Assembly (NCBI GenBank): GCA_963693095.2
Contig: OY843768.1
Coordinates: forward strand, 174,715 to 206,714
DNA: 32,000 bases
From: Cenarchaeum sp.
GTDB taxonomy: Archaea > Thermoproteota > Nitrososphaeria > Nitrososphaerales > Nitrosopumilaceae
Direction: 5' to 3'
A model generated the notes under the pieces. It did no database searches. It saw nothing but the letters and a program-made list of their open reading frames with translations, and was not told the DNA's origin. A program made the translations under genes and the position numbers. Shown piece by piece: positions 6,832-31,336 of the stretch; the first letter of the stretch is position 1; each line of letters opens with the position of its first letter.

Positions 6832-6859
6832 AAAGAGCCGTCGGGGAGGCGCCACCCTG

Positions 6860-7018
6860 ATGGCAGCGCGCAAGAGCTCGGCTCGCAAGATCCGCCTTAT
6901 CAGAAAGGCAAAGCAGACATCGCCGGTGCCAGCATGGGTGATACTTCGCACAAAGCGCGGGGTTCGAACAAACCCAAAGCGCCGCGCCTGGCGCCAGACG
7001 GACGTGGATGTGGGCTAG
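6860..7018 (+). CDS. rpl39e: 50S ribosomal protein L39e
   Basis: 52-aa basic product MAARKSSARKIRLIRKAKQTSPVPAWVILRTKRGVRTNPKRRAWRQTDVDVG. Only the last part of ORF 6605..7018 is used (ATG at 6860). Confidence 0.85.
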   Translation: MAARKSSARKIRLIRKAKQTSPVPAWVILRTKRGVRTNPKRRAWRQTDVDVG

Positions 7019-8695: not shown

Positions 8696-10060
8696 TTAGC
8701 TCATCGCCACGGCCAAGAGGCAGTGAGTCGTCGCCCTGGTCACCTCGGCCTCTAGGCGCTCTCCTGCCGGGGCACTGCCGCACCCATCAACGTCGAGCTG
8801 CCTGTAGGCCCCGTTGCGGCCCACCATGCCTCGCTCGCCCCTGCCGGTGAGCCTGACCTGGCCCTTCCAGCCGACCCACGCCTCGCTGGCCTCGAGTACG
8901 ATCCTGCCGGCCAGGTCGTGTATCTCCTTGCTGCGCCGCTTGACGGCCCGCTCGTCGGGGCGCTCGAGCAGGGCCGCCTCGGTGCCCGGCCTGGAGCTGT
9001 ACCTGGAGAGGTTTACAATGTCAGGCCGCGTCTCCTCGAGGAGGCGCACGGTCTGCGCATGGTCATCGTCAGTCTCGCCGGGATAGCCGACGATGATGTC
9101 AGTGGCCACGGTAAATCTCGCAAAGCGCCGCCTCATCGTCTCGCACGCGCGCGCAAACGTCTGCGCCGTGTGACCACGCTTCATCGCGCCGAGGATGGCG
9201 TCGCTTCCGCTCTGGACGGGCATGTGGAGGAATCGGTATATGCGCGGATCGGCCTCCATGGCGTCTGCAATGCCGTCAAGCGTGCGACCCGCGTACATTG
9301 GGTTCATCATGCCAACGCGCACGCCAAAGTCGCCCTCGACGTCGCTTACTGCGCGCAATAGCTCCGGCAGGCTCGAGTCGATGTCATGCCCATAGCACCC
9401 GTTGTCAGTCGACGTTAGCCATATCTCACGGCACCCGTCGCGCACATCGGCGCGAACCTGCCTGACGATATCGCCGACGCGATAGCTCTGAAGTCCACCC
9501 TTTGCGAGCTTTGTCTGGCAGAATGAGCACTCACTCATGCACCCGCTTGCAATCTCGACTATTCCCACCAGTGGATCCAGGCGCACCTTTGGCAGGCCGA
9601 CCTTTGTGTCTGTCCCGTCAAGCGCAACGCGCCGCTCGCCGACAAGGGCTGCATTGACAAGCTCGCCGGCGCGCGATATTGCTCCCGGCCCCATCATGCC
9701 GGCCTGCGGCGTAATCTTGCGCACGGTCTCTGGCTCGGCCTTTGCCATGCATCCGGCAACGACTAGTGGTCTTGAGGAGAGGTGTCGCATTCGCTGGATC
9801 ATGCGTCTTGCCGTGGCGTCCTTTACCGAGCACGTGACGATGACACTAGCGTCGGCATCGCCCTCGCCGTCAGCTATCGTGTGGCCCTCTGAGCGCAGGA
9901 CACCGGCGATCATCTCCGAGTCGGCCCTGCTCGCCGAGCACCCGTACTCTTCAATGTGGACCCTCGCCGTGGCCGCCTCACCTGAGTAGCGCGTCCATCT
10001 CGGCGCTCGTTGCAATCCCGCCGGCGACTGCAAGCTCCCTGATCGTCTTGCCTGTTGCAA
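8696..10060 (-). CDS. MiaB/MtaB-family radical-SAM tRNA methylthiotransferase
   Basis: N-terminal UPF0004 cysteines (EEYGCSAS, VTCSVKD, VAGCMAK), radical-SAM CMSECSFC motif and a C-terminal TRAM-like region. Start uncertain. Only TTG codons (10060, 10033, 10015) precede the conserved VHIEEYGC, and all overlap the 3' end of the upstream gene. Confidence 0.8.
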   Translation of the reverse strand: MQQARRSGSLQSPAGLQRAPRWTRYSGEAATARVHIEEYGCSASRADSEMIAGVLRSEGHTIADGEGDADASVIVTCSVKDATARRMIQRMRHLSSRPLVVAGCMAKAEPETVRKITPQAGMMGPGAISRAGELVNAALVGERRVALDGTDTKVGLPKVRLDPLVGIVEIASGCMSECSFCQTKLAKGGLQSYRVGDIVRQVRADVRDGCREIWLTSTDNGCYGHDIDSSLPELLRAVSDVEGDFGVRVGMMNPMYAGRTLDGIADAMEADPRIYRFLHMPVQSGSDAILGAMKRGHTAQTFARACETMRRRFARFTVATDIIVGYPGETDDDHAQTVRLLEETRPDIVNLSRYSSRPGTEAALLERPDERAVKRRSKEIHDLAGRIVLEASEAWVGWKGQVRLTGRGERGMVGRNGAYRQLDVDGCGSAPAGERLEAEVTRATTHCLLAVAMS

Positions 10061-11339
10061 GTGACTCCTTGAAGAGGGCCGCGGCCCTCTGGTAGCCTAT
10101 CTTTGGCGCGAGGAGCGTGACTATGACGGGGCTGCCCTCTATGCGCCCGCGCATCTTGGCCTTGTCAGCACCTAGGCCGTCGATGAGGTTTGCTGCAAAC
10201 TTTGGCCCAAAGCCGGCGAGCATGTCTAGTGAGTCAAGCGTGCGGTCGATCATGACGGGAAGCATGACGTTGAGCTCAAACTGGCCCGCAGACGCCGCTG
10301 CGGCGACTGCGGCATCGTTGCCAGATATTGCGATGCAGACCATGTTCATGCACTCGGCGAGTGACGGGTTTACCTTTCCGGGCATTATCGACGAGCCCGC
10401 ATGGACCGCCGGTATCGAGAGCTCTGCAATTCCGGCGACAGGGCCTGACGCCATGAGCCTAATGTCATTTGACACCCTGCCTAGCTCGACGGCGAGGCCG
10501 CGCAGCGCGCCGGAGAGTGACGCGATGGCCTGCCTGCTCTGGAGGCCATACTGCATGTCTGGCTCGGGGCGCAGTTTTAGCCGCGACACGCGCGCAAGCT
10601 CGGCGACTGCAGCACGCCTGTAGCCGCGCGGAGTGTTTGCGCCAGTTCCTACTGCCGTTCCGCCAAGTGCTACGGCCTCTAGCGGCCTGGCAGCGGCCGC
10701 TATAGAGTCGCGCGCCGACTTTATCGCAGTCGCGTACGCGCCAAACTCGGCGCCAAGCGTGACGGGAAGCGCGTCCATTAGGTGCGTGCGCCCGAGCTTT
10801 TTGTGCGAGGAGAATGCCCTTGACTTTTTTCGCAGCGAGGAGACTATGCGGTCTATGGCCGGAAGCGTGGCCTTTGTGGCGCCGAGTGCGGCCACGTGCA
10901 TTGCTGTGGGAAACGTGTCGTTGCTTGACTGTGACATGTTGACATGGTCGTTTGGGTGGAGGTGCCCGTACTCGCCGCGCCTCTTGCCGAGCTTTTCGAG
11001 GGCGACGTTTGCGATGACCTCGTTTGTGTTCATGTTGAGCGCCGTGCCGGCCCCCGAGTTTATCGCGTCGACTGCAAAGTCCCCCATGTGCTCCCCGCCG
11101 AGTATGGCGTCACACGCCCTGGTTATCGCGCGACCCGTGGACTTTGGAAGGGCGCCGACGCGCATGTTGGCGACAGCCGCTGACCTCTTTGTCATTACAA
11201 ACGCCCTGATGAGGCCGTCATGCGACCTCCTTCCAGTGACCGTGTACTGGGCGATCGCCCTGGCCGTGAATGGCCCATAGTATGCCGAGTATGGCACCTT
11301 TACGTCGCCTAGCGAGTCCGTGTCGGTTCGCGTCTTCAT
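9978..11339 (-). CDS. class II fumarate hydratase / aspartate ammonia-lyase family protein
   Basis: GSSIMPGKVNP signature, SQSSNDTFPTAMH, TDSLGDVKVPYSAYYGPFTARA at the N-terminus. I cannot separate fumarase from aspartase by eye. Confidence 0.85.
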   Translation of the reverse strand: MKTRTDTDSLGDVKVPYSAYYGPFTARAIAQYTVTGRRSHDGLIRAFVMTKRSAAVANMRVGALPKSTGRAITRACDAILGGEHMGDFAVDAINSGAGTALNMNTNEVIANVALEKLGKRRGEYGHLHPNDHVNMSQSSNDTFPTAMHVAALGATKATLPAIDRIVSSLRKKSRAFSSHKKLGRTHLMDALPVTLGAEFGAYATAIKSARDSIAAAARPLEAVALGGTAVGTGANTPRGYRRAAVAELARVSRLKLRPEPDMQYGLQSRQAIASLSGALRGLAVELGRVSNDIRLMASGPVAGIAELSIPAVHAGSSIMPGKVNPSLAECMNMVCIAISGNDAAVAAAASAGQFELNVMLPVMIDRTLDSLDMLAGFGPKFAANLIDGLGADKAKMRGRIEGSPVIVTLLAPKIGYQRAAALFKESLATGKTIRELAVAGGIATSAEMDALLR

Positions 11340-11389
11340 GCAGCCGCGTCGCTGCGCGTCCCGTTAATCACTCTTTGCGGCCCGTCTGC

Positions 11390-11500
11390 GTATGAGGTCA
11401 GCACCCTCGCCTGTTCATGCCTGGGCAGACGCCGCAGTGGCAAGTCGATATGCCGGATCACGCCCATTTGGTCAAATGGGCAGAGGTGCTGACCTCATAC
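11390..11500. repeat. repeat element A: 111-bp unit with perfect 16-bp terminal inverted repeats and one palindrome-containing ~50-bp unit
   Basis: GTATGAGGTCAGCACC (11390-11405) is the exact reverse complement of GGTGCTGACCTCATAC (11485-11500). Inside, 11462-11481 is the 20-bp palindrome GCCCATTTGGTCAAATGGGC. Confidence 0.75.
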
Positions 11501-11506
11501 TGGTAG

Positions 11507-12829
11507 CTAGAGCATTGCCGGAACCTTGAGCCGCTCGAGCGCATTGTGCGCCTTTATGCGATATAGCGCAGCGTCGCGCTCGGCCTCCACAAAGTCAAGG
11601 CGCCTGACCATGTCTGGCAGGTCGGGTATGAGCGCAGACCCCTCGCACTTTTCCTGGTAGTGATTTGCGTTGACCCGAACCCATTCGGAGGCGACCGAGG
11701 CGAGGAAGAGGAGTCCGTCGTATCCAAGCGCTGACTCAAGTGCCGCAGAGAATGACTCGCGGTTCGCATTTGCGCTCCACCGAACTGCCATGTCGCGCAG
11801 GCGCGATATCTCGCCTGCGTGGCTTGTGAGATCCCTGGTAATCGCATCGTCAGGAAACGATGCTCCACTGGCGTCGCGCATTCTGCCATGTAGGTCAAAA
11901 AGTATGTGGAGCTCTATGACCATCTGCTTGACACAGTTGAGGATCTTGTGGCGCTCTAGTCGGTTCCACAGTGGCGAGAGCGTGTTGCCCATCGACTGCA
12001 CCTCGTTTTGCAGCCTGTGCCGACCAAGTGCGTCATACAGCGCACACCTGATCCTGATCAGCTCGGAGGCGGTGTGGATTGCGCCATCTCCCATCTGGTC
12101 ATAGTCAGCACAGTGGGTTGGGTTCTGCGCCACATACGCGTCTATCCTGCTGGAGAGACTTGCCCAGTCAGACAGCCCGATTGGCGCCTCGGAGGGAATC
12201 TTGGAGAGTGCGGCGCAGAATGACTCTGGCATTGCGTGCAATAGCCCATCAAGCAGCGCCAGGGCCATGGTTGCGCACGCAAAGTACGGCCGTTCTGCAC
12301 CGTGGCTGGCCACCATGGCGCTGTCTGGTGACTGGCCTACCTCGACCATTCCGTTGCCCGGACTGGCTATCCTGTCACGCATGTCAGGCATCCCCAAGAC
12401 AAGTTTGCGCACCTCGTCAGATAGCGGCTGCAGGTGTGAGAGTTCGACCTTTGCGTCCTTAAGCTGTGAGAGCAGCCCGTCATACATGTCGACGAACCGG
12501 TGGAGGTCGAGCGCAAGGTACTGCAGGCTAGACTTTATCAGGCAATGATCCTCATCAGACGTTCCCGGCACGAGGCCTGCCGCCTCGCGCAGCGCAAAGT
12601 CCAGCCCAATGCGAAACTCAAACATGTCAACGAGCGTCCGGTCAAGCTTGCCCTGTCTCCCGCTGCCTGACGTGGGGGCCATGTATGCGGCGTGGGTACG
12701 GTGTATGGGCGAGGCGCACTCGGCCCCGCAATCGGCACTGCACTCGCCTGGCGCCTCATCAAGCCAATAGTCCCACATTAGCGATTGCCCCCGTGTGAGG
12801 GCGTGACATCCGTCATGCCACTGCCGCAC
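11507..12829 (-). CDS. hypothetical protein, 440 aa, mostly helical, Cys-rich N-terminus; no family recognised
   Basis: Long ORF with genome-typical GC; the ORFs on the opposite strand are shorter shadow ORFs. N-terminus has ECSADCGAECASPIH. Start is GTG 12829 or ATG 12778. Confidence 0.6.
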   Translation of the reverse strand: MRQWHDGCHALTRGQSLMWDYWLDEAPGECSADCGAECASPIHRTHAAYMAPTSGSGRQGKLDRTLVDMFEFRIGLDFALREAAGLVPGTSDEDHCLIKSSLQYLALDLHRFVDMYDGLLSQLKDAKVELSHLQPLSDEVRKLVLGMPDMRDRIASPGNGMVEVGQSPDSAMVASHGAERPYFACATMALALLDGLLHAMPESFCAALSKIPSEAPIGLSDWASLSSRIDAYVAQNPTHCADYDQMGDGAIHTASELIRIRCALYDALGRHRLQNEVQSMGNTLSPLWNRLERHKILNCVKQMVIELHILFDLHGRMRDASGASFPDDAITRDLTSHAGEISRLRDMAVRWSANANRESFSAALESALGYDGLLFLASVASEWVRVNANHYQEKCEGSALIPDLPDMVRRLDFVEAERDAALYRIKAHNALERLKVPAML

Positions 12830-13074
12830 ATGGTCACCCCGGTGCGATGATCCCTGCAGCCCATACCGCGCAAATCTCCAACATTATGTTATATGTTTTG
12901 CTGCATGGACTAGCCTCGCGAATTCGCGTGTCGGCCGCATTGTGGCGGCGTTGGAAGCGTGTGCCAGCCTCAACACGCCATGCTGCTGCGATCATGCGGC
13001 GATGGCGGGCATTTGGCAAGCAGGCGGCTCGGATCCTTGCGATCAAAAAGCTTTAACTAGAAGCGGATCGAAGT

Positions 13075-13611
13075 GTGGGCAGTGAGGTCATACGACGCAT
13101 GAGCGACAAAGGTCAACCAGATCACGGGAGCACGTCTGTGGACAGGCATGAAAGTGAGGACGTGTGCCGTACACTTGAAGCGACCATGGGCATAATCGTT
13201 CGTGTTGGACGCATAGATTATGATGTTGCAGAGTATCTTGCATGCACACAAGCAAGATCAGCCGAAAATATGCGTGGCGAAAAACGTCGGAAAATCCTGA
13301 GGCATGTTTATAGTATGAACGCGGTGATACGATACAACAATGTCAGAGGAGACCTGAATCGTAAAGACATTGACAACTCACTGAAAATGGTGAGGCGAGT
13401 ACGAAACGGCCTGGCTCATTGTGTAGAACAGATAACCCCAGACGGAGTAACGGGCAATTATGAGGTTCCGATAAGCTATAGCGCAAAATATCTGAGGCAG
13501 GTATTGAAGACTGCCGATTTATGCTCAAAAGACATAACAAAATCATTTCTGAAAAAACAACAATATGTCAAATGGAAGGAGATCGGCAAGTCAGAGACAA
13601 AAGTTGCATAG
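13075..13611 (+). CDS. hypothetical protein with RNxxxH (HEPN-like) motif, encoded in an AT-rich islet
   Basis: 178-aa ORF in a visibly AT-rich stretch (~13050-13700). The motif SLKMVRRVRNGLAHCVEQ (RNGLAH encoded at 13402-13419) matches the R-[N/polar]-x3-H HEPN ribonuclease signature. Start is GTG 13075 or ATG 13099. A TATA-like AAAAAGCTTTAACTAG lies just upstream. Confidence 0.5.
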   Translation: MGSEVIRRMSDKGQPDHGSTSVDRHESEDVCRTLEATMGIIVRVGRIDYDVAEYLACTQARSAENMRGEKRRKILRHVYSMNAVIRYNNVRGDLNRKDIDNSLKMVRRVRNGLAHCVEQITPDGVTGNYEVPISYSAKYLRQVLKTADLCSKDITKSFLKKQQYVKWKEIGKSETKVA

Positions 13612-13779
13612 GGCGGGGATTTTGACCCCCCCATGATATCTTTATTGGCGTTTTGTCTAGAACTATCTCGACAGGACCTGTATTTCACATTGAAATGATG
13701 GCGAAGGACTCGAATGGGCGACCACTACTTTCCGTGCAAAACAAGAGACGGGGCTTTGTCCACAATGATCCCTCAAAAG

Positions 13780-14063
13780 GTATGAGGCCAGCACCACGTG
13801 TGATCATTTGACCAAATGGATGCACCTTGTCCATCTACTTGCCACTGCGACGTCTGTCTAGGCACGAACGAGCGGTGGTGTTGACCAGGCCCGGCGCCCT
13901 AGAGAGATCCTCGATGGCCTCGATCCTGCCGTTGAGCTGCGCCACCATGCTGTCCGGGTTCCGGTCCTGTTGCCCCGTCACGCCCCTGGGGCAGGCGTCG
14001 CGGCAGATGGATCGGCAGGATCACGCCTATTTGGTCAAATGGGCAGGGGTGCTGACATCATAC
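13780..14063. repeat. repeat element B: 284-bp unit bounded by two inverted copies of the ~50-bp palindrome-containing unit
   Basis: Left copy 13780-13826 (GTATGAGGCCAGCACC...CATTTGACCAAATGG) and right copy 14013-14063 (...CCTATTTGGTCAAATGGGCAGGGGTGCTGACATCATAC) are in inverted orientation. The terminal 16-mers are complementary at 14/16 positions. Confidence 0.75.
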
Positions 14064-14080
14064 CCCAAAACCCATGATCC

Positions 14081-14092
14081 CCTTATATATGG
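14081..14092 (+). promoter_or_regulatory. TATA-box-like element of the nirK-like gene
   Basis: CCTTATATATGG lies ~20-30 nt upstream of the ATG at 14112 and 18 nt downstream of repeat element B. Confidence 0.5.
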
Positions 14093-14111
14093 GCCAAATG
14101 GGGGCGTGGCA

Positions 14112-15494
14112 ATGAACACAAGACAACTACGCACGCTACTCCCCGTGGCCGCAGTCGCGGCAGTGGGGATGACGCTGCTAGGAAGCTCCTACACGCAGAC
14201 ACAGATATCGGGCATGACGCTAGACACGTCAGCACTAGACATTGACGCCATACAGCAGATCCACGACATGGGCGGCCTCAGGCTAGTCATGCCGGAGGCA
14301 TTCGCACAGATGGACTGTGGCGACCTTGACACATCAGGGCGCGACATAGTCAACCTGGACCTAATCGGCGAGAGCGTAATGCTGCCGATCATGGGTCACA
14401 CCGCAGAGAACCCAAAGACATTCCATGCAATGACCTTTAACGGCCAGGTGCCAGCACCTACGCTGAGGGTCACGCAGGGCGATGTTGTGAGGATGACGCT
14501 GACGATTCCGGACGGTGAACTAACGCCGCACGGCAACGACATGCACGCCTCACAGATATCGGCAACAAACTTCGATGCGGTAAACCCAGGCGAGTCAGCA
14601 ACGTACTGCTACATAGCACACGTTCCAGGCGTCTTCAAGTACCACTGCTCGGGCGTTAACGTCGCGGCTATGGACCAGCACGTCCTCTCGGGCATGTATG
14701 GCATAGCCATCGTCGACCCGCTCGACGGCTACAAGAGGCTCATGGTCGAAAAGACGGCAGTAGAGAACGGAGAGGTCGTAAAGGACAGGATGTTCTATCC
14801 GCCTGACGCACTCGAGTTCCAGCTGCAGTACAACCAGCTCTACCTGACTGACTCTGGCACATATGACAGCACGGCAATGTTCAAGCACCAAAACACGCAG
14901 ACAGTCGTCAACGGAATGCAGTTCGGATACGTCCCCAACGAGACGCACAACACCCTAGTCAAAGATGATCCCAAAAAGAACATCTTTGTGGCACAGCCAT
15001 GGAACTCCGAAGACCTCGCACAGTACCAGTCGCAGCTCCTCTTCGTGGAGACCGACCAGCACGTGAGGTTCTTTGTTGAGAACCAGGGCAACGAGCCGGT
15101 GTTCTTCCACATTGTCGGCGAGATCCTAGACAGGGTCACGCAGGGCAACAGAGTCCAGTCCGGGCCTACCGAGACGTGGCTCCTTGGAGGATCGCAGAAC
15201 ATGATCGTCGACGTCGTCTTTGACGAACCGGGCGTATACGTCGCAGTCAACCATGACTATGCGGCGATATTCTCTGGTGCGGCGACGATCATAGTGGCTG
15301 GAGACCCCTTTGGCCTGGTCGAAAAGCACGACCTGCCAGATGCAGTGTCCAAGTCATACGCGTATGCGCTAGGAAACCCGAGTGACGCAGTCCCTCCGAT
15401 GGGAGATCAGAGCATGGAGCACCCAATGGTGAACCTGCACGGCCTCTACACCGACGAGCGGGCTGCAGAGCTCAGCACACAGCTCGGCCTATAG
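14112..15494 (+). CDS. nirK: NirK-like two-domain multicopper oxidase (copper nitrite reductase family) with signal peptide
   Basis: MNTRQLRTLLPVAAVAAVGMTLLG signal-like N-terminus. PHGNDMHA matches NirK HNIDFHA (T1 and T2 His). YHCSGVNVAAMDQHVLSGM supplies the His-Cys...His...Met ligands. FFHIVGE and VAVNHDY are in domain 2. ORF 13827..15494 trimmed to the ATG at 14112, because the upstream part is repeat element B. Confidence 0.8.
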   Translation: MNTRQLRTLLPVAAVAAVGMTLLGSSYTQTQISGMTLDTSALDIDAIQQIHDMGGLRLVMPEAFAQMDCGDLDTSGRDIVNLDLIGESVMLPIMGHTAENPKTFHAMTFNGQVPAPTLRVTQGDVVRMTLTIPDGELTPHGNDMHASQISATNFDAVNPGESATYCYIAHVPGVFKYHCSGVNVAAMDQHVLSGMYGIAIVDPLDGYKRLMVEKTAVENGEVVKDRMFYPPDALEFQLQYNQLYLTDSGTYDSTAMFKHQNTQTVVNGMQFGYVPNETHNTLVKDDPKKNIFVAQPWNSEDLAQYQSQLLFVETDQHVRFFVENQGNEPVFFHIVGEILDRVTQGNRVQSGPTETWLLGGSQNMIVDVVFDEPGVYVAVNHDYAAIFSGAATIIVAGDPFGLVEKHDLPDAVSKSYAYALGNPSDAVPPMGDQSMEHPMVNLHGLYTDERAAELSTQLGL

Positions 15495-15564
15495 CCAACA
15501 GCACACTATCTTCATTTTTCATCTCCCAAATCGTTATAACCCGTGCGCACGCCCCTCGGCCACG

Positions 15565-16494
15565 TTGGCCGCAAACTCTGCCCTGATATGCGACAAGGTT
15601 GACCCCATACTCAACAAGATACTCTCCGATAACGGGATTGAGGTGACCTACGAGCCAGAGATCACGCCTGAGGCCCTCCTCGAGTCAGTCGCAGACTGCA
15701 CGATAATCGTCGTGCGCAGCCGCACAAAGGTGACCTCTGAGGTCATTGCGCGCGCTACGTCATGTAAGATAGTCGCGCGTGTCGGAGTCGGCCTAGACAA
15801 CATCGACACTGAGGCGTGCAAGGCGCGCGAGATACGCGTCCTCAACGCAGTCGAGGGCGCGATGAACGCCGTCGCCGAGCTCGTCCTGGCTCTCATGCTC
15901 TCGATGGCACGCCAGATACCACGCGCCGATGCTGCCCTGCGCGAGGGGCGCTGGCTCAAAAAGGAGCTCGTGGGCAGCGAGCTGCGCGGCAAGTACCTCG
16001 GGATCGTCGGCATGGGCAACATTGGCAAGCGCCTCGCGCGCCTCGCGCGCTCGCTAAACATGAACATAATCGGCTATGACGTCGTGCCCATCGACGCCGA
16101 GCTCTCGCGCGAAGTTGGGCTGATGAAGGCCGACCTTGACACGCTGTTCCAGAGCTCCGACTATGTCTCGCTCCACGTGCCCCTCCTCGACTCGACGAAA
16201 AACCTCGTTGATGCGCGACGCCTTGCGATGATGAAGCCGACTGCACGCCTCATCAACACGTCGCGTGGGGGAATAGTTGACGAGGATGCGCTATATGACG
16301 CAGTCTCATCAGGCAAGCTTGCCGGCGCGGCACTTGACGTCTTTGATGTCGAGCCGGCCACGTCTAGCCGGCTCAGGGAGCTCGAGCAGGTTGTCCTCAC
16401 GCCGCACATGGGCGCGCAGACGGCCGAGGCCCAGGGACTTGCGGCCAACGTCATTGGCGAAAAGATAGTGCAGGCAGTGCGCGGCGTCATCTAG
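15565..16494 (+). CDS. D-isomer-specific 2-hydroxyacid dehydrogenase, SerA-like (short form, no ACT domain)
   Basis: VARVGVGLDNID, NAD motif GIVGMGNIGKRLARLA, HVPL, and RLINTSRGGIVDE...LDVF...E...TPHMGA catalytic region. TTG start at 15565, with a TATA-like GTTATAAC ~28 nt upstream. Confidence 0.8.
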   Translation: MAANSALICDKVDPILNKILSDNGIEVTYEPEITPEALLESVADCTIIVVRSRTKVTSEVIARATSCKIVARVGVGLDNIDTEACKAREIRVLNAVEGAMNAVAELVLALMLSMARQIPRADAALREGRWLKKELVGSELRGKYLGIVGMGNIGKRLARLARSLNMNIIGYDVVPIDAELSREVGLMKADLDTLFQSSDYVSLHVPLLDSTKNLVDARRLAMMKPTARLINTSRGGIVDEDALYDAVSSGKLAGAALDVFDVEPATSSRLRELEQVVLTPHMGAQTAEAQGLAANVIGEKIVQAVRGVI

Positions 16495-17260
16495 CGCGGC
16501 GCGCAATTCGCGCAGCAGCGGCCCCGCCGCCGATTCCATTGTCAATGTTCACCGTTGCGAGTCCCGGCGAGCAGCTCTGCAGCATGGATGCCAGCGCGGC
16601 GGCCCCGCGGCCGGCATGGCCGTACCCGACTGACGTCGGGATGCCGATGACGGGTATGTCGACTAGCGAGGAGACTACTGTGGCGAGGGCTCCCTCCATT
16701 CCGGCCACGACAATGATCGCCCCAACGTCACCTTTGGCCATTTGCTCCACTGCCGGAAACACCCTTCCGAGGGCCGCAATCCCTACGTCGTACTCGGTTG
16801 TGCACTTGCAGTCCATGGCCTCGCACATGAGGCGGGCCTCCTCGGCGACGCCAATGTCTGACGTGCCGGCGGCCATTATGCCGACGCGCCCGAGCACGCG
16901 CCGCCTGCGCCCCTTTTTTGCCAGCACGGCAGTCGAGCGGCGCGCAAGCGTGACGCTTGCGCCCAGTGACCTGAGGTGGGCTGCCAGCGCACCCCTCTCC
17001 CTTGCGCGAACCCTTGACACCAGCGCGACGCCCGAGCTCTTGAGGAGCCTTGATGCTATGGCCCTAGTCTCGGCTGCAGTCTTTGTCGAGGCGAGGACTA
17101 CCTCGGGTGCGCCGGTTCGATCGCGCCTTGATGTGTCAACGCGCGCAAACCCGCCTACGCGCTCTATGGAGTTGAGCGAGATTAGCGTTCGTGCGCGCTG
17201 CGCGCCGATGCGCCCTGACTGCAGCGACTCTAGTATCTCGTCGAGCTCCATCGCGCGCAT
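16487..17260 (-). CDS. larB: LarB-like (PurE-related) nickel-pincer cofactor biosynthesis carboxylase/hydrolase
   Basis: ~120-aa N-terminal domain followed by a PurE-like domain (VGIMAAGTSDIGVAEEA...VVAGMEGALATVVSSLVDIPVIGIPTSVGYG). This matches the COG1691/LarB architecture, and larC and larE are nearby. Confidence 0.75.
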   Translation of the reverse strand: MRAMELDEILESLQSGRIGAQRARTLISLNSIERVGGFARVDTSRRDRTGAPEVVLASTKTAAETRAIASRLLKSSGVALVSRVRARERGALAAHLRSLGASVTLARRSTAVLAKKGRRRRVLGRVGIMAAGTSDIGVAEEARLMCEAMDCKCTTEYDVGIAALGRVFPAVEQMAKGDVGAIIVVAGMEGALATVVSSLVDIPVIGIPTSVGYGHAGRGAAALASMLQSCSPGLATVNIDNGIGGGAAAARIARRAR

Positions 17261-17282
17261 TCTGAGCTGTGCGGATAAATAC

Positions 17283-18191
17283 CTAGATGCCGGCTATGGC
17301 CGCCTTTACGCTAGCTGCTGCAGCATCAAGGACACCGCGCTCGGCCTCGTCCAGGTCGAGCTCGACTATGCTCTCTACGCCGTTGCGCCCTATGATGGCC
17401 GGCACGCCAAGCGCAATTCCCGAATGACCATACTCGCCCTCGAGGGGAGTCGAGACCGGTATGAGCTGCTTTTTGTCGCGCACGATCGACTCGATGAGCG
17501 CGGCTATGGCGTTTCCGGGGGCGTGAACAGTCGCGCCCTTTAGGGATATGACCTTGGCGGCGACCTTTTTTGTCGACTCTACGATCTCGTCTAGCTTTTC
17601 GCGCGGGAGCATGTCAGTCAGCGGTATTCCGGAGACTGAGGAATGGCGGACGAGGGGCAGCATGTTCACGCCGTGCTCGCCGATGACTAGCCCCCTTATC
17701 GAGTCGCGCGACTTGCCAGTTGCCCCGTGTATGAACTCCCTAAAGCGCGACAGGTCAAGCATCCCGCCCATGCCCACGATGCGGCTCCTCTCAAAGCCTG
17801 ACTCCTTGTGGGCCACGTGAACCATGGGATCAAGCGGGTTTGTCACCGGTATTATGATCGAGTCTGGCGCGTGCCTTTTCGTCTCGGCCACGACGCTTGT
17901 GACGACCTTTGAGTTTATCTTTAGGAGGTCCATGCGCGTCATGCCGGGCTTGCGACCTGCGCCGGCCACGACGACCACAATGTCCGAACCGGCCATCTCG
18001 GCATAGTCGTTGGAGCCGCGGACATTGACGTCGATTCCCAGCTCGGCTAGCGCGTGGCTCGTGTCCATCGCCTCGCCCTGCGGGAGGCCTTCTGCAATGT
18101 CGAGGAGGAGTATCTCGGTGTCTAGCCTGCGCAGCGCGCTAAAGAGGGCAGCGTCGCCGCCGACCTTGCCAGAGCCCACAATCGTGATCAT
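17283..18191 (-). CDS. mdh: malate dehydrogenase (LDH-like MDH family)
   Basis: [12 protein letters not shown] Rossmann start, [15 protein letters not shown] (Arg at the substrate-discriminating position), IGEHG. ORF 17283..18260 trimmed to the ATG at 18191, which has a TATA-like GGTTTAATTAC ~25-35 nt upstream. Confidence 0.85.
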
Positions 18192-18298
18192 CTGTGCGCA
18201 GGGGCTCTGTGCTGCGTAATTAAACCTAGTGTGGTCTTTGAGTGTGGGGCCGGCACCCATGTCAGCCTATGCCCGAATAGGCGTAGCGGCCAAGTAAA

Positions 18299-18336
18299 CC
18301 GGCAGAATCAACGCCCATTTGACCAAATGGACATTG
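18299..18336. repeat. repeat unit C (palindrome-containing unit, 3' part missing)
   Basis: CCGGCAGAATCAACGCCCATTTGACCAAATGGACATTG matches the 5' two-thirds of the family consensus. It ends 1 nt from the stop codon of the 18338..18937 gene. Confidence 0.7.
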
Positions 18337-18365
18337 CCTAGAGTGAGAATTCTCGATATTCTTGT
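18337..18365 (-). pseudogene. remnant of the 5' end of the 3-TM gene, fused into the C-terminus of the 18338..18937 ORF
   Basis: GAATATCGAGAATTCTCAC (minus strand) matches GAATATCAAGAATTCTCAC at the start of the 19092..19682 gene (MRISRILT). The ATG is lost, and homology stops at repeat unit C. Confidence 0.5.
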
Positions 18366-18937
18366 GCCTGCGCGCTCTGTGTTCCGAGCAGAGACCCCGC
18401 AATGTCATCATACACCCTGGGCACGCGCTCTTGGTTGATTATGAACCAGCCGCGCGCCTCCTCGATCATCTCCTCGCGCGTGAGCGTCCTGCCCCCTGCG
18501 CGCATCTTGTCCTCAATATAGCACAGCGTCGAGGCGATCTCGAGCCACTCGACGTCATCGATGCGCTCGCGCGCGAGCTCAACAAACTCTTCTCTGCGGC
18601 TCCATTCCTGCGCGGGCTCTGAGTGCAGGTCCTTGAGCCCCCAGATGTCAACCTCGAACCCAAACGCGTGGGGGCTGGTCATGCTCCAGTCATAGACGTA
18701 CCTCTCCAGGTTGGGGCAGTCGAGCCTATGCTTTGCAAAGTAGACGAGTATGTTCAGGGACAGGCGCGTGGCGTTGCTCTTCCAGCTCTGATACATGTCG
18801 CACGGGATGACGCCGGCGTCACAGAGGACATGAAGTATGGGAACCGGGGATCCAGGGACGATCATGCCCCCGTTGGGGAGCGACTCGGTCGGCACCATCC
18901 TGTACCCCTCGACATTGACGTATCCCCGATCCTGCAT
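18338..18937 (-). CDS. hypothetical protein, paralog 1 of a duplicated unknown family (199 aa)
   Basis: MQDRGYVNVEGYRMVPTESLPNGGMIVPGSPVPILHVLCDAGVIPCDMYQSWKSN... is close to nine-tenths identical by eye to the 19679..20254 product. Own TATA-like box 24-33 nt upstream. Confidence 0.6.
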   Translation of the reverse strand: MQDRGYVNVEGYRMVPTESLPNGGMIVPGSPVPILHVLCDAGVIPCDMYQSWKSNATRLSLNILVYFAKHRLDCPNLERYVYDWSMTSPHAFGFEVDIWGLKDLHSEPAQEWSRREEFVELARERIDDVEWLEIASTLCYIEDKMRAGGRTLTREEMIEEARGWFIINQERVPRVYDDIAGSLLGTQSAQAQEYREFSL

Positions 18938-19091
18938 CGGACAGGAAACGGCCCCTGGAGCTTATAATCCTATCCTGAGATACTGCTTTAACCACGAATG
19001 TGCACGGGCAGTCGTCTCCCAAAGACTGACTACCGGATGGTGGAGTATTCGGGATTGGCCGCCATCTCTGCCACATGGCACAATATCTGGG

Positions 19092-19682
19092 CTATGCGCG
19101 CGCTAGATCCTCGCGCACGTTCTTGCCCCGTGTCTCTCTAATGTACTTGGATATTTTCATTGCAGACCCTTGAATCCACTGGATATCGGAGACGTGGACG
19201 GTGTCTTTTTGCAGGTTGCTTATCATCTGATCGACTATACGGAGCGGCTTTGTCTTGAAGCTGCGCTCCACCCTGGCGCTGACCACTGCACTCTTTATGC
19301 TATAGACGTGCATTATGAACATCACCCTGTGGTGATCTGGGACAGTTGCCCTTTGTGGTTCTATAGACGACTTGAAGAGTGCCTCTATGGTACGCTGGCA
19401 CATCTTGTGCAGGGTTGATAGTGACTGGAGCACAGAGTCAGTCTCCTCGCCATACCGAAACCTCTCTGCCTGTTGGGTTATCGTGTAGCTGAACACGCCT
19501 AGCACGTATGCATAGTATCCGCATATGACGGCCACCCCTAGCGCCATCAGGGACGTTAGCAGCGAAATGGCGCCATAGACGCTTCCTGTTGCGATCAGCG
19601 TGCTCCAATAGATCGCCACTAGCCCGCCGCCTATGACTCCGGCGGGAAGCATTCCCAGGGTGAGAATTCTTGATATTCTCAT
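19092..19682 (-). CDS. hypothetical membrane protein (three N-terminal TM helices + ~120-aa soluble C-terminal domain)
   Basis: ILTLGMLPAGVIGGGLVAIYW, SVYGAISLLTSLMALGVAVICGYYAYVLGVF, then a charged domain. Its ATG overlaps the TGA of the upstream paralog-2 gene (ATGA at 19679-19682). More AT-rich than its neighbours by eye. Confidence 0.6.
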   Translation of the reverse strand: MRISRILTLGMLPAGVIGGGLVAIYWSTLIATGSVYGAISLLTSLMALGVAVICGYYAYVLGVFSYTITQQAERFRYGEETDSVLQSLSTLHKMCQRTIEALFKSSIEPQRATVPDHHRVMFIMHVYSIKSAVVSARVERSFKTKPLRIVDQMISNLQKDTVHVSDIQWIQGSAMKISKYIRETRGKNVREDLARA

Positions 19683-20303
19683 GGCTGTGTACCCCCAGTT
19701 CCGAGCAGCGACCCCACAATGTCGTCGTACACCTTGGGCACGCGCTCTTGGTTGATTATGAACCAGTTGTGCGCCTCCTCGATCATCTCCTCGCGCGTGA
19801 GCGTCCTGGACTCTGCGCGCATCTTGTCTTCAATGTAGCACAGCGTCGAGGCGATCTCGAGCCACTCGACGTCATCGATGCGCTCGCGCGCAAGCTTGAC
19901 AAACTCTTCGCTCCTGTCCCACTCTTGCGCGGGCTCTGTGTGCAGGTCCCTGAGCCCCCAGATGTCAACCTCGAACCCAAACGCGTGCGGGCTAGTCATG
20001 CCCCAGTCATAGACATACCTCTCCAGGTTGGGGCAGCCAAGCCTGTGCTTTGCAAAGTAGACGAGTATGTTCAGGGCCAGGGACACGGCGTTGCTCTTCC
20101 AGCTCTGATACATGTCGCACGGGATGACGCCGGCGTCACAGAGGACGTGGAGTATGGGAACCGGGGATCCAGGGACGATCACGCCCCCGTTGGGGATCGA
20201 CTCAGTAGGCACCATCCGGTATCCCTCGGCATTGACGTATCCCTGATCCTGCATCGGACAGGAAGCGACCCCTGGAGCTTATAATCCTACCCTGAGATCC
20301 TGC
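19654..20303. repeat. 650-bp segmental duplication, copy 2
   Basis: See copy 1. The right boundary (20303) abuts repeat unit D (20304). Confidence 0.85.
19679..20254 (-). CDS. hypothetical protein, paralog 2 of the duplicated unknown family (191 aa), translationally coupled to the 3-TM gene
   Basis: MQDQGYVNAEGYRMVPTESIPNGGVIVPGSPVPILHVLCDAGVIPCDMYQSWKSN...; stop/start overlap with 19092..19682; TATA-like box GGATTATAAG upstream. Confidence 0.65.
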   Translation of the reverse strand: MQDQGYVNAEGYRMVPTESIPNGGVIVPGSPVPILHVLCDAGVIPCDMYQSWKSNAVSLALNILVYFAKHRLGCPNLERYVYDWGMTSPHAFGFEVDIWGLRDLHTEPAQEWDRSEEFVKLARERIDDVEWLEIASTLCYIEDKMRAESRTLTREEMIEEAHNWFIINQERVPKVYDDIVGSLLGTGGTQP

Positions 20304-20357
20304 GTATGGGAGCCGACACCACTGCCCATTCGGTCAAATGGGCATTGATCCTGCCGG
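20304..20357. repeat. repeat unit D (full-length palindrome-containing unit, inverted orientation)
   Basis: Reverse complement CCGGCAGGATCAATGCCCATTTGACCGAATGGGCAGTGGTGTCGGCTCCCATAC aligns along its full length with units at 11453-11500 and 14013-14063. Confidence 0.7.
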
Positions 20358-20390
20358 TGCGCTGGCATTATCATCGGCCACGCCCACAAC

Positions 20391-20400
20391 AATTTATATC
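20391..20400 (+). promoter_or_regulatory. TATA-box-like element of the larC-larE-nifS operon
   Basis: AATTTATATC lies 24-33 nt upstream of the larC ATG (20424) and 33 nt downstream of repeat unit D. Confidence 0.45.
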
Positions 20401-20423
20401 ATTTTTGTCGCGCACGGCCAGCC

Positions 20424-21638
20424 ATGGCGCTAGTCATAGACGCACAGGTTGCCGGAATATCCGGAGACATGCTCCTGTGCTCGCTGGTTCACATGGGGGC
20501 CGACCCCGCAAGGATAGAGTCTGCGCTCATGCGTGCGGCCTCTGGCCTCCAGGGCGAGGAGGTCAAGGGCATCTCCTTTGAGCGCGTGAGGCGCCATGGG
20601 CTCGAGGCTACTGCGCTGCGCGTTGACTCGTCTGGCGCGCCACACTCGCGCGCCGCCTCGGAGCTCGCAGCGCACATTGCGTCCTCGGCCGCATCATGCA
20701 AGATATCAGGGCAGGCCGCCTCGTTTGCCTCGCAGAGCGTCCAGACGCTCATCGCCGCCGAGTCGGCAGTTCACGGCGTTGGCGCATCGTCGGTTCACCT
20801 CCACGAGGCTGCCGGAGTCGACACGCTCATTGACATACTCGGCACGGCAATTGCACTCGATGACCTGGGCCTCCTCTCGGAGCGCATAACATGCACCCCC
20901 GTGGCAGTCGGCGGGGGACTCTTAGAGTTCTCACACGGCGTCGCATCCAACCCCGCCGGCGCGATACTCGAGATATTCCGCCGACGCGGCATTGAGATCC
21001 GCGGCGGGCCGGCCGGCGTGGAGCTCACGACACCGACTGGCGCTAGCATGCTCGTCAACCTCGCCTCCTCGTGCGAGCGGTTCTACCCGCCACTCTCGCC
21101 GACTGGCATCGGATATGGCGCCGGCAGCGCCGAGCACGACGCGTTTGCAAACGTTCTCAAGGTCGTGCGCGGGACCGAGTCTGCCGCGCTTGCAGCCGAC
21201 ACGGTCCGCGTGCTTGAGACCAACCTCGATGACGTCACCGGCGAGCTCCTCGGCCACGTCATCGACGAGCTCATGCGCAAGGGTGCGCATGACGTGACTG
21301 TCTCGCCGGCGGTCACAAAAAAGGGGCGGCCCGCAAGCTTGCTGACTGCAATATGCGACGCGCGCTCGTATGATGACGTGCTGCGCGCGCTAGTCGAGGA
21401 GACCGGAACGCTCGGCGTGCGCGTGCGCGACTCGAACAGGGTTGTCGCAAGGAGGGACTCGGCGACTGTCAGGGTCACCGTGGAGGGCAGGCAGTTCGAT
21501 GTGCGCCACAAGGCAGCGCGCGGTGGCATTCCAAAGGTGGAGCACGACGACGTGGCCCGCGTGGCCTCTGAGCTCGGCATGCCGCTGAGGAGAGCACGCC
21601 GCCTCCTCGATGATGCCGTGTCAGGGGGTCGGCAATGA
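20424..21638 (+). CDS. larC: LarC-like (DUF111) nickel insertion protein for the Ni-pincer nucleotide cofactor
   Basis: N-terminus MALVIDAQVAGISGDMLLCSLVHMGADP matches the LarC/UPF0272 start (...GISGDM.LGAL.D.G). ~400 aa, single ORF. Followed by larE with an ATGA overlap. Confidence 0.85.
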   Translation: MALVIDAQVAGISGDMLLCSLVHMGADPARIESALMRAASGLQGEEVKGISFERVRRHGLEATALRVDSSGAPHSRAASELAAHIASSAASCKISGQAASFASQSVQTLIAAESAVHGVGASSVHLHEAAGVDTLIDILGTAIALDDLGLLSERITCTPVAVGGGLLEFSHGVASNPAGAILEIFRRRGIEIRGGPAGVELTTPTGASMLVNLASSCERFYPPLSPTGIGYGAGSAEHDAFANVLKVVRGTESAALAADTVRVLETNLDDVTGELLGHVIDELMRKGAHDVTVSPAVTKKGRPASLLTAICDARSYDDVLRALVEETGTLGVRVRDSNRVVARRDSATVRVTVEGRQFDVRHKAARGGIPKVEHDDVARVASELGMPLRRARRLLDDAVSGGRQ

Positions 21639-22432
21639 CGCGCATCGCCGCGCTGCGATCGTGGTTTGAGGGCCATGACTGCCCGCTAGTGGCGCTCTCT
21701 GGCGGCGTCGACAGCGCGCTAGTCGCCCACGCGGCCCACTCGGTGACGCCCCGCGCAATCGCGTTCACGGCCGACTATCAGGCGCTGCCTCGCGAGGATC
21801 TCGAGGCGGCGCGCAAGACGTGCGACGAGATTGGCATCGAGCACATGGTCGTGCAGTACGACGAGCTCCTCAACGAGTCCTATGCGACAAACACGCCTGA
21901 CCGCTGCTTTCACTGCCGCACAGAGCTCGGCGAGCGCCTAGTCGAGGCCGCGCGGCGCGTCACTGCCGATGTCATAGTCGACGGGACGCATCTCGATGAC
22001 ATGGGCGACTATCGTCCCGGCCTTGAGGCCATGCGCGCTGCCGGCGTGCGCAGCCCGCTCGCCGAGTCTGGACTCACAAAGGACGACGTGCGCGAGTGCG
22101 CGCGCGCCGTCGGGCTCTCGGCGTGCGACAGGCCTGCCAACTCGTGCCTCGCCTCGCGGATACCGTGGGGCCGGCGCGTCACTGCCGAGAGGCTCGCGCG
22201 CATAGAGCTTGCCGAGAGGATTGTGCGCCAGGCCACGGGCATTGGCATCGTGCGCGTTCGCGACACGGGTGATGAGACTGCGCGCATCGAGGTTCCGCAC
22301 GACAGCATCGGTGAGCTGCGGCGCTCGATGGACTCGCAGATATCGCCGCGCCTGCGCACACTGGGGTACCTCGAGGTGAGCGTGAGCGAGCGCGGATACT
22401 CGCAGGGCGGGGCAAACGCGGGGGCGCAATGA
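21635..22432 (+). CDS. larE: LarE-like PP-loop ATP-dependent sulfur transferase
   Basis: PP-loop VALSGGVDSALVA. DRCFHCRTELGERL and ANSCLASRIPWG are LarE-like motifs. Overlaps the larC stop and the nifS start. Confidence 0.85.
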   Translation: MTRIAALRSWFEGHDCPLVALSGGVDSALVAHAAHSVTPRAIAFTADYQALPREDLEAARKTCDEIGIEHMVVQYDELLNESYATNTPDRCFHCRTELGERLVEAARRVTADVIVDGTHLDDMGDYRPGLEAMRAAGVRSPLAESGLTKDDVRECARAVGLSACDRPANSCLASRIPWGRRVTAERLARIELAERIVRQATGIGIVRVRDTGDETARIEVPHDSIGELRRSMDSQISPRLRTLGYLEVSVSERGYSQGGANAGAQ

Positions 22433-24407: not shown

Positions 24408-24419
24408 GCGCGCAACGTC

Positions 24420-25286: not shown

Positions 25287-25424
25287 CAGGGCAAGCGCCC
25301 ACCTATGGCTATTTATGTATATTTGATTGGCGTGGGCAGCCCACGCGGGGACTAGCCTTGCGGGCTCACGCACAGCCTCCCCTGCGCCAAAGGGCGCCAG
25401 TCAGGCTAAAAAGTTAGAGTGTGG

Positions 25425-26000: not shown

Positions 26001-26025
26001 GGTGCCCCGCGGCCATCGGGGCGCG

Positions 26026-26033
26026 TTATATAG
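26026..26033 (-). promoter_or_regulatory. TATA-box-like element of amoB
   Basis: Minus-strand CTATATAA lies 26-33 nt upstream of the GTG at 26000, in the short gap after the stop (26057-26059) of the upstream gene. Confidence 0.45.
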
Positions 26034-26056
26034 TTTTCCGGCTCCAGGGCCGCCCC

Positions 26057-26566: not shown

Positions 26567-26612
26567 CAGGCGCCGCGCGCGCGGCGTTTTGTAAAAAGCC
26601 TTTGCCGGCACG

Positions 26613-29487: not shown

Positions 29488-29489
29488 GC

Positions 29490-31296: not shown

Positions 31297-31336
31297 GCCA
31301 TTAGCGTTATAATGTCCGCTACTATATTTGGTTCAC

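Follow-up and report, generated by a model that had tools for sequence, protein, structure and literature searches.

A probable MITE-like family of 111-bp elements at the borders of accessory-gene islands in a Cenarchaeum-like lineage

Within a narrow lineage of Cenarchaeum-like archaea (Nitrosopumilaceae), a 111-bp element is dispersed across intergenic loci unrelated to one another, and in the window (the whole stretch of 32,000 nucleotides analysed) its copies bracket accessory genes, as an earlier note on this DNA had described, all four borders of both inserts being occupied. These copies probably constitute an undescribed, lineage-restricted family resembling miniature inverted-repeat transposable elements (MITEs), which builds up at accessory-gene islands and may contribute to their reshuffling. 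The combination of 111 bp, 16-bp terminal inverted repeats, lack of coding sequence, dispersal, decay and presence/absence polymorphism amounts to a MITE-like anatomy, and the element looks like selfish DNA more than a gene switch. The earlier note could assign the repeats to no known class; Rfam indeed returned no family match, even at E up to 1, but the anatomy does fit that of a MITE-like non-autonomous transposon.

The most complete copy in the window, element A (11390-11500, plus strand, nhmmer E = 1e-31), ends in perfect 16-bp terminal inverted repeats (16/16), GTATGAGGTCAGCACC on the left (11390-11405) and GGTGCTGACCTCATAC on the right (11485-11500). Between them lie a variable interior (11406-11449), a conserved GGATCA stretch and a 20-bp palindrome (11462-11481) that adjoins one terminus only; the element contains no ORF and has no coding capacity. 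Every terminus in the family has the form G-TA...TA-C. The terminal motif GGTGCTGACCTCATAC occurs four times in the window (at 11390 and 13780 on the minus strand, 11485 and 14048 on the plus strand) against 0.22 expected, and the palindrome core CCCATTTGGTCAAATGGG, allowing up to 3 mismatches, five times (11463, 13803, 14026, 18314 and 20325) against 0.02 expected from 100 shuffles. A repeat family built on the palindrome is therefore real, and all the sequences originally quoted for it are present where they had been placed. The unit, on the contrary, is not the ~50 bp first proposed but 111 bp, the pieces taken as left and right copies at A being the two ends of one element. Positions 11396-11449 of its interior recur inverted at 13833-13886 (54 nt, 81%), homology between copies ends at the termini, and the order of parts and the unit length are common to the other two copies of the first insert, to element C and to copies on two further contigs (L034 9300-9410, L031 6819-6931). 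The 9+2+9 description of the palindrome applies to some copies, but not to those of L034 and L031, in which the centre is GGCC and the 20-bp palindrome has no spacer; the centres GGTC (A, B) and GACC (C, D) represent one C-to-T change seen on opposite strands.

The remaining copies in the window display varied states. B-left (13780-13892, minus strand, E = 9e-25) is full-length and inverted but decayed, with a weakened palindrome and an inner terminus reading GGTGTTGACCAGGCCC. B-right (13953-14063, plus strand, oriented as A; nhmmer 13959-14063, E = 2e-25) has a decayed left terminus and an intact palindrome and right terminus. Element C (plus strand, E = 7e-19) had been recognised correctly as a copy but with too short an extent, since nhmmer prolongs it leftwards, to 18242-18336; its left terminus is decayed (GTGTGGGGCCGGCACC), and its right one is missing, the copy being cut just past the palindrome, directly upstream of the conserved MDH promoter (GTAATTAAACCTAGTGTG), with the native flank defined by comparison with contigs L035, L037, L038 and L039. 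Element D (20304-20366, minus strand, E = 1e-9) is an inverted half copy that keeps only terminus, palindrome and GGATCA stretch, its interior and far terminus being absent; native larC upstream sequence restarts at ~20363.

The earlier note would have discarded the family had the motif been found only at this locus, which is not the case. Sister-strain contigs hold three further copies at unrelated loci, one intact in L034 (111 bp, termini 16/16 and 15/16, 83% identical to A) and two decayed in L031 (6819-6931 and ~17868-17976), and neighbouring genes differ among copies on different contigs. The element-bearing genomes sampled amount to ~100 kb, chosen via the accessory genes. The proposed intergenic placement applies to 10 of 10 copies, while only ~12% of the DNA is intergenic according to the gene table (p ~1e-9, with insertions treated as independent). 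Some copies are intact and others badly decayed, and they share 55-83% identity, which indicates an old, decaying family; neither a recent burst nor ongoing mobility is evident from these identities. GTDB representative genomes and JGI metagenome contigs produced only chance matches to the element, and plasmid and phage collections no relatives of it. The host itself is a Cenarchaeum-like ammonia-oxidising archaeon.

Presence/absence polymorphism at orthologous loci, which had been suggested as a check, is observed. Contig L029 matches the window at 95-98% identity in the parts that both contain but has neither A nor B, unrelated DNA of 1.4 kb lying exactly between the positions of their outer ends; homology to L029 breaks at 11390 and at 14072, 8 bp beyond 14063, delimiting a strain-variable block (11391-14071) made up of A, B-left, B-right and their cargo. 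This first cargo encodes a 423-aa all-alpha protein (11507-12778, minus strand) and a 178-aa protein (13075-13611, plus strand), neither with a recognised function. The second (18337-20303, minus strand), which separates the MDH promoter from that of larC, carries three genes (199 aa, a 196-aa membrane protein and 191 aa) and includes a 655-bp internal duplication. Each insert separates a pair of divergently transcribed core genes, fumarase and MCO in the first case, MDH and LarC in the second. In relatives these neighbours adjoin each other directly, fumarase and MCO in L035, L037 and L038 (L039 begins too near MCO to show the fumarase gene), MDH and LarC in L037, L038 and L039, and nhmmer found no match to the element in L035-L039. 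Other cargo occurs without any element at the first site in L029 and at the second in L035; thus, the element is not required for insertion there.

This arrangement raises the question of whether two inverted 111-bp units serve as the working ends of a cargo-carrying composite or long-terminal-repeat transposon, spanning 11390-13892 or 11390-14063, 18242-20366 and, in L031, 6819-17976. Such a reading, a special case of the MITE-like explanation and not an alternative to it, is considered unlikely. It agrees with copies being located at all four island borders and absent from the gaps between genes inside the islands (12779-13074 and 18938-19091), with a plus-strand left copy and a minus-strand right copy in 3/3 pairs, palindrome-bearing ends facing the cargo (chance probability ~0.02-0.03, assessed post hoc), and with the outermost termini of the first block being its breakpoints relative to L029. 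Nonetheless, (i) block borders show no flanking duplication (3/8 for 11390-14063), (ii) the outer terminus is missing in D and the inner one in C, (iii) homologous cargo is found without the element in L033 and with it on one side only in L034, (iv) the same sites hold other, element-free cargo, and (v) the 423-aa family, with several paralogs, some in tandem, is not a recognisable transposase and has no transposase fold. MITE-flanked composite mobilisation units are exemplified by integron mobilisation units in Enterobacteria and Acinetobacter, and share with the present loci two short non-coding copies with inverted termini bracketing accessory genes. They differ in that whole-block transposition is here only a proposal, the block ends lack a duplication, and truncation affects one or both flanking copies. 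According to PMC6563490, composite transposons carrying passenger genes had not been detected in archaea.

Regarding a regulatory role, the palindrome might bind a dimeric transcription factor acting on adjacent promoters, possibly tuned by Dam methylation of the nearby GATC, a reading judged improbable. The palindrome is perfect or near-perfect and is the best-conserved segment, even where termini are decayed (mean pairwise identity 82%, versus 56-74% for termini and interior), and TATA-like boxes are found 15-60 nt downstream of B-right, C, D and the second L031 copy. The distances reported in the earlier note are accurate, with 19 nt from B-right to TTATATA (14083) and ~33-35 nt from D to the larC TATA box (20391-20399), both boxes lying downstream, 6 nt between A and the stop codon at 11507, and 1 nt between C and that at 18338; equally correct are its GATC positions and its Dam-type methylase, a D12-class methyltransferase encoded at 2254-3108. 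Against an operator, however, the palindrome is never found outside the 111-bp element, its distance to TATA boxes and its orientation vary (19, ~34 and ~15 nt, from different sides), neither A, which lies past a stop codon, nor the L034 copy is at a promoter, and the neighbouring genes are functionally incoherent. Moreover, none of the elements includes the TATA promoters of MCO, MDH and larC, which are conserved without the palindrome in the element-free relatives L035, L037, L038 and L039. The GATC occupies one fixed position in the element consensus (GGATCA), so that its recurrence reflects common descent and not independent retention; it is lost in C, and the window contains no fewer GATC sites than expected (155 versus 114). 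The Dam-class gene belongs to the conserved core, at the same position in L037, and has no link to the repeats. The methylation-sensitive operator is thus not supported, the GATC being inherited element sequence and the core promoters being conserved by relatives without the element. A purely selfish element does not predict the better conservation of the palindrome, which makes a binding function for it possible; the site could also have been spread by the element and co-opted later.

Three further readings carry little weight. Hairpin-dependent single-strand elements, either REP/REPIN-like with a RAYT or derived from IS200/IS605 with an HUH tyrosine transposase, appear very improbable. A stable hairpin of 9-10 bp can arise from the palindrome, in a sub-terminal position ~20 nt from one end, copies are strictly extragenic and, as in REP/REPIN systems, often in inverted pairs, and IS200/IS605 elements are common in Thaumarchaeota (PMC6563490). 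On the contrary, the 16-bp terminal inverted repeats are clear here and absent from IS200/IS605 and REPs, each unit has a single hairpin instead of one per end or a doublet of inverted REPs, and the palindrome is not preceded by a GTAG-type head. Pairing is not preserved in a strand-consistent manner among variants, the loci examined contain neither an HUH nor a RAYT gene, and apparent copy density is low. Palindromes acting as invertase or integrase crossover sites that capture or flip cassettes would account for their inverted placement around each cargo block and for the 2-bp asymmetric core at the centre of some copies. Such a role seems extremely improbable, as the centre is symmetric in L034 and L031, cargo orientation does not change between the window and L029, the palindrome forms part of a larger unit that has termini of its own, and no recombinase gene occurs in the window or related loci. 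Finally, element A folds as a closed hairpin or rod (z = -5.4 to -5.7, either strand), as might a small structured RNA gene of ~111 nt. Hardly any weight is given to this interpretation: the fold amounts to the inverted termini and the palindrome and forms equally well from either strand, it is lost in decayed copies (z ~0 for the B copies) with no compensatory changes, the element contains no promoter-like box, and the Rfam search at E up to 1 was negative.

Returning to the MITE-like explanation, a transposase encoded elsewhere would recognise the termini and move copies in trans, and the palindrome might be a sub-terminal binding site for that transposase or a host factor, which would explain its superior conservation. 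Copies would persist only in dispensable intergenic DNA, a condition expected to concentrate them at island borders. Resident copies may then provide portable homology or paired ends, with recombination or co-mobilisation reshuffling the genes between them; this would explain both a strain-variable block ending exactly at element termini and intact copies devoid of flanking duplications.

Prokaryotic MITEs, such as Sulfolobus SM1-SM4 and the haloarchaeal ones, are likewise small, non-coding and bounded by terminal inverted repeats; their copies are scattered between genes, some intact and others decayed, and are present or absent between close strains. The present family differs from them in its strong 20-bp palindrome beside one terminus only, its old copies (55-83% identity) and its apparent target-site duplications in only two of four testable copies, and no parent insertion sequence with its termini was found. 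Correia, ERIC and RUP are bacterial MITEs that adjoin genes and alter their expression; they resemble the element in size (~100-150 bp), in inverted termini folding the whole unit into a hairpin, and in location between genes, near promoters and stop codons. On the contrary, no sequence similarity to them was found, the element shows no evidence of promoter, terminator or RNase-site activity, and its host is an archaeon with TATA/BRE promoters. The family is the first MITE-like one that we could find in the literature for Thaumarchaeota, a group in which 244 insertion sequences have been catalogued with no mention of MITEs (PMC6563490).

Putative target-site duplications are seen in two of the four testable copies. 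At exact junctions, an 8-bp direct repeat flanks an L031 copy (ATCTTGAG/ATCTTGCG, 7/8) and B taken as a 284-bp unit (CTCAAAAG/CCCAAAAC, 6/8), and none flanks the two most intact copies, A and that of L034. The G-TA...TA-C termini could alternatively represent a TA duplication of the IS630/mariner type. No autonomous element or transposase with matching termini was found, coverage of the source genome being the window. An intact IS630-family insertion sequence disrupts a gene in L034, which indicates active transposition in the population.

The sequences quoted in the earlier note as a family of ~50-bp palindromic units in six copies were all recovered from the positions assigned to them. The repeat family is real; its unit size is what requires correction, the stretches A-left and A-right being the two ends of a single 111-bp element (A, 11390-11500), because the DNA between them (11396-11449) is itself repeated, recurring inverted at 13833-13886 over 54 nt with 81% identity according to a repeat finder. 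The element is ordered as a left terminus T (GTATGAGGTCAGCACC), a variable interior, a conserved GGATCA stretch, a 20-bp palindrome, and a right terminus T' that in A is the perfect reverse complement of T (16/16). When up to three mismatches are allowed, the palindrome core is found five times in the window (11463, 13803, 14026, 18314 and 20325) against a shuffle expectation of 0.02, and the 16-nt terminal motif GGTGCTGACCTCATAC four times (11390 and 13780 on the minus strand, 11485 and 14048 on the plus strand) against an expectation of 0.22.

The remaining units were placed in the frame of the element by alignment and with an nhmmer profile. A, on the plus strand, is complete and has perfect termini (E = 1e-31), B-left (13780-13892, minus strand, E = 9e-25) is decayed but full length, and B-right (about 13953-14063, plus strand, E = 2e-25) has a decayed left terminus. 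C (18242-18336, plus strand, E = 7e-19) ends directly after the palindrome, and D (20304-20366, minus strand, E = 1e-9) is a half copy with its outer end missing. Each 111-bp unit holds one palindrome, preceded by GGATCAC/ACG and with no doublet inside the unit. Copies from sister strains have GGCC in the middle of the palindrome, which is then perfect and has no spacer, and the centres GGTC and GACC of the window copies correspond to one C-to-T change read on either strand. Pairwise identity among copies ranges from 55 to 83%, with the palindrome as the most conserved segment (82%), followed by T' (74%) and by T, the interior and the GGATCA stretch (56-66%), and homology between copies stops at the termini.

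The search of related genomes for the family, proposed in the earlier note, yielded further copies at unrelated loci, on contigs found by following homologs of the cargo proteins, namely the products of the genes lying between the window copies. The sister-strain contig L034 carries one (9300-9410; 111 bp, termini 16/16 and 15/16, 83% identity to A), and the sister-strain contig L031 two, one decayed (6819-6931) and one heavily so (about 17868-17976). Inverted termini are decayed in all copies other than A and that of L034. The five full-length copies measure 111-113 bp and contain no ORF. Altogether, ten copies occupy six distinct intergenic gaps in four contigs or windows, and the intergenic placement claimed for the family extends to 10 of the 10, though intergenic DNA makes up only about 12% in the gene table. 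Gene calls in relatives place the start of MDH at 18191 (302 aa) and that of the nirK-like multicopper oxidase gene (MCO) at 14112 (460 aa), mechanical ORFs (17283-18260 and 13827-15494, respectively) being over-extended, and C and B are therefore outside coding sequence. Among GTDB representative genomes, a collection that evidently does not include the source genome, the exact pattern CCCATTTGRYCAAATGGG gave 26 single matches, approximately the number expected by chance and all in unrelated bacteria, and a pattern for the junction of palindrome and terminus gave one chance match, within a coding region, in JGI metagenome contigs; the family is therefore not widespread. Pattern scans of viral contigs produced two chance matches and then none.

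According to Pfam scans, the window (G+C 60%) runs from amoA through genes for a Dam-class methyltransferase, an ADP-forming acyl-CoA synthetase, an enoyl-CoA hydratase, L31e, a tubulin/FtsZ-family protein and a radical-SAM enzyme to fumarase. There follow A, a 423-aa gene (minus strand), a 178-aa gene (plus strand), B-left and B-right, then, again from Pfam scans, MCO, a 2-hydroxyacid dehydrogenase gene, LarB and MDH (both minus strand). C, three genes of 199, 196 and 191 aa (all minus strand) and D come next, and LarC, LarE and an aminotransferase gene, identified likewise, close the order. The closest named homolog of MCO is that of a Cenarchaeum sponge symbiont (71%), followed by those of Nitrosopumilus and Nitrosarchaeum. 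Together with the G+C content, this makes the source a Nitrosopumilaceae member resembling Cenarchaeum.

Comparison of orthologous loci reveals the presence/absence polymorphism that the earlier note had proposed to look for. The strain represented by contig L029, 95-98% identical to the window, is collinear with 9169-11390 and 14072-31638 and retains C, D and the three genes between them. A and B are absent, and between its collinear parts lies unrelated DNA with a 276-aa gene and no element, the breakpoints being the outer terminus of A and a point 8 bp past the outer terminus of B-right. In more distant relatives (contigs L035-L039) there was no match to the element, and the sites, where visible, are both empty in L037, L038 and L039. 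Among those with 78-81% identity in MCO, fumarase adjoins MCO in L037 and L038 (L039 begins too near MCO to show fumarase) and MDH adjoins LarC in all three. Where MCO identity is 85%, the first site is empty in L035 and lies beyond the start of L036, which begins at MCO, and the MDH-LarC gap holds a gene pair with Pfam MJECL32 and MJECL33 domains (8081-9716 in L035, 4433-6068 in L036). No flanking repeats surround the alternative cargo at the first site of L029 or the second of L035. Since different cargo without the element is found at the same sites in relatives, the fumarase-MCO and MDH-LarC gaps, each separating divergent core genes, are hot spots where insertion recurs independently of the element. 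Elements accompany certain cargo only, within a single narrow lineage. As a separate observation, the 276-aa gene in the fumarase-MCO gap of L029 encodes a secreted-looking protein.

Orthologous promoters also bear on the speculation that the palindrome is a methylation-sensitive operator, served by the Dam-type methylase of the window. Such an enzyme is indeed encoded (ORF 2254-3108, a D12-class adenine methyltransferase), and the spacing from stop codons and TATA boxes reported with that idea proved correct on rechecking, as did the positions of GATC. The operator itself finds no support: in L035, L037, L038 and L039 the promoters of MCO, MDH and larC still have their TATA regions and contain no palindrome, and the native promoters conserved in relatives lie outside the elements (GATCCCCTTATATA before MCO, GTAATTAAACCTAGTGTG for MDH and AATTTATATCATTTTT before larC). 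The distance to the TATA box varies (19, about 34 and about 15 nt), as does the orientation of the element, A and the L034 copy lie away from promoters, and the palindrome was never seen outside the element. GATC belongs to the inherited consensus of the element and is not statistically unusual in the window (155 observed, 114 expected), and the methyltransferase gene belongs to the conserved core, with the same location in L037. The higher conservation of the palindrome is the sole observation in favour; it would be compatible with protein binding that serves the element itself or has been co-opted by the host. For annotation, the palindrome should not be taken as a regulatory motif of the nirK-like or lar genes.

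Around these features, the D12 methyltransferase gene has amoA on one side and the gene for acyl-CoA synthetase on the other. Its location is shared by L037, a distant relative, and it is therefore a conserved orphan, not part of a mobile restriction system. At 14092-14104, between the TATA box and the start codon of MCO and 30 nt from B-right, GGCCAAATGGGGG contains the palindrome half-site CCAAATGGG; this motif is partly native, L039 having TATATATGGGCATTTGAGG at the same place, and its likeness to the palindrome may be chance or a real relation. Terminator and promoter scans of bacterial type, whose models are unsuited to an archaeal host, remained at background level.

MITEs are non-coding elements of roughly 50-500 bp with terminal inverted repeats, dispersed copies, filled and empty sites, target-site duplication and a related autonomous insertion sequence. 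For the present element, structure, occurrence at multiple loci, absence from orthologous sites and termini coinciding with a strain-variable block are directly observed, and its size, lack of ORFs, inverted termini, dispersal and filled and empty sites agree with that description. Its build, its scatter over unrelated loci, the graded decay of its copies and the mix of filled and empty sites all fit a non-autonomous transposon of MITE type, and a lineage-restricted MITE-like element that marks, and perhaps reshuffles, accessory-gene islands is probably the best explanation. Copies would be mobilised in trans by a transposase encoded elsewhere, with the palindrome as a putative binding site, would persist only in dispensable DNA, and may undergo secondary recombination with one another. 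Concerning target duplication, 8-bp direct repeats were found at the exact junctions in L031 (7/8) and around B, its two copies counted as one 284-bp unit (6/8), and A and the L034 copy have no 8-bp flanking repeat; all termini read G-TA...TA-C, with which a TA duplication is also compatible. No parent insertion sequence with the termini of the element was found in roughly 150 kb, and the 423-aa cargo protein is all-alpha, without a transposase-like fold.

The sole insertion sequence seen is an intact IS630-family (DDE_3) one in L034 (11060-12168), bounded by 23-bp inverted termini that match perfectly and flanked by TA. It interrupts a paralog from the 199-aa family, leaving ORFs of 178 and 56 aa, and shows recent transposition in the population. 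This insertion sequence was rejected as the parent, its termini being unrelated to those of the element.

Other known palindromic repeats agree less well. REP/REPIN sequences are imperfect palindromes with a GTAG-like head, typically in inverted doublets, whereas here there is a single palindrome per unit and no such head, and no RAYT (HUH Y1) gene was present in the loci read. Elements derived from IS200/IS605 have sub-terminal hairpins at both ends and neither terminal inverted repeats nor target duplication, in contrast to the one hairpin and clear 16-bp inverted termini found here. Rfam gave no match at the gathering threshold over the whole window except tRNA-Thr, and none in 11300-14200 at E up to 1, plasmid and phage collections contained chance-level fragments only, and a full-text literature search returned no description of MITEs in Thaumarchaeota; on these grounds the element is filed as MITE-like, a family not described before within a class already known.

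The bracketing of accessory genes, also claimed earlier, holds at all four island borders, each of which carries a copy, internal gaps having none. Palindrome-bearing ends moreover face the cargo in 3 of 3 pairs (A/B-left, C/D and the two L031 copies). This arrangement hints at a minority reading, which we consider unlikely, namely that the inverted 111-bp pairs act in composite mobilisation of the cargo or recombine with each other. Its fuller form is slightly less likely still: the pairs would be functional ends of composite transposons with cargo, or recombination modules, by which accessory, possibly defence-related, gene blocks are inserted between core genes of divergent orientation in a symbiotic archaeon that oxidises ammonia, and the palindrome would be the protein-binding site driving this. 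Against both, the block ends lack duplication, the flanking copies are truncated, D having lost its outer end, and the same sites hold other cargo without elements. Homologous cargo has no elements in contig L033, and in L033, L034 and L031 it is not likewise bracketed, save for a loose 11-kb pair in L031. A block with both flanking copies, enclosed by intact outer ends and a single target duplication and recurring at a second locus, as expected of a composite transposon, is not seen.

Nitrosopumilaceae ammonia-oxidising archaea are usually described as poor in mobile elements. A MITE-like family in the Cenarchaeum-like lineage would mean that non-autonomous transposons had escaped notice in this group, and the element would serve as a marker of strain-level genome plasticity in sponge-associated populations; two concrete hot spots with strain-specific cargo, fumarase-MCO and MDH-LarC, would likewise be identified. 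If copies do mobilise or recombine the enclosed genes, they would provide a mechanism of accessory-gene flux in archaea that, to our knowledge, has so far been documented only in bacteria. A survey published in 2019 on mobile elements in Thaumarchaeota (PMC6563490) counted 244 insertion sequences of 13 families, with zero in C. symbiosum A, leaves MITEs unmentioned, and states that passenger-carrying composite transposons were undetected in archaea.

Some further features of the window and its cargo were observed. At 30001-31000, G+C falls to 46%, compared with about 60% elsewhere, and only short ORFs without Pfam matches occur. Two tandem 51-nt repeats (7408-7509, 84% identity) lie in a long C-terminal extension of the L31e ORF (7008-7649). 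A 655-bp direct duplication of ~90% identity (18332-18986 and 19650-20303) yields the paralogous 199-aa and 191-aa genes with their upstream regions, flanking the 196-aa membrane-protein gene; one duplicate abuts the C palindrome and the other the outer terminus of D. Three-gene clusters homologous to this cargo adjoin homoserine dehydrogenase in L033 and L034. The 423-aa protein (11507-12778) belongs to a family of ~420-aa all-alpha proteins (AF2 pTM 0.80), also encoded in L031 (5307-6569 and 10001-14030), for which no Pfam, PADLOC or PDB-fold match was obtained. Outside the lineage, contigs L041 and L042 carry no element copies, and a general association of element and family was rejected. 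In L031, four paralogs stand beside GmrSD and SNF2/PLD-type genes, and given these neighbours the family may belong to defence islands. The 178-aa cargo protein (13075-13611) contains an R-x4-H motif (RNGLAH) that, at the sequence level, recalls HEPN domains.
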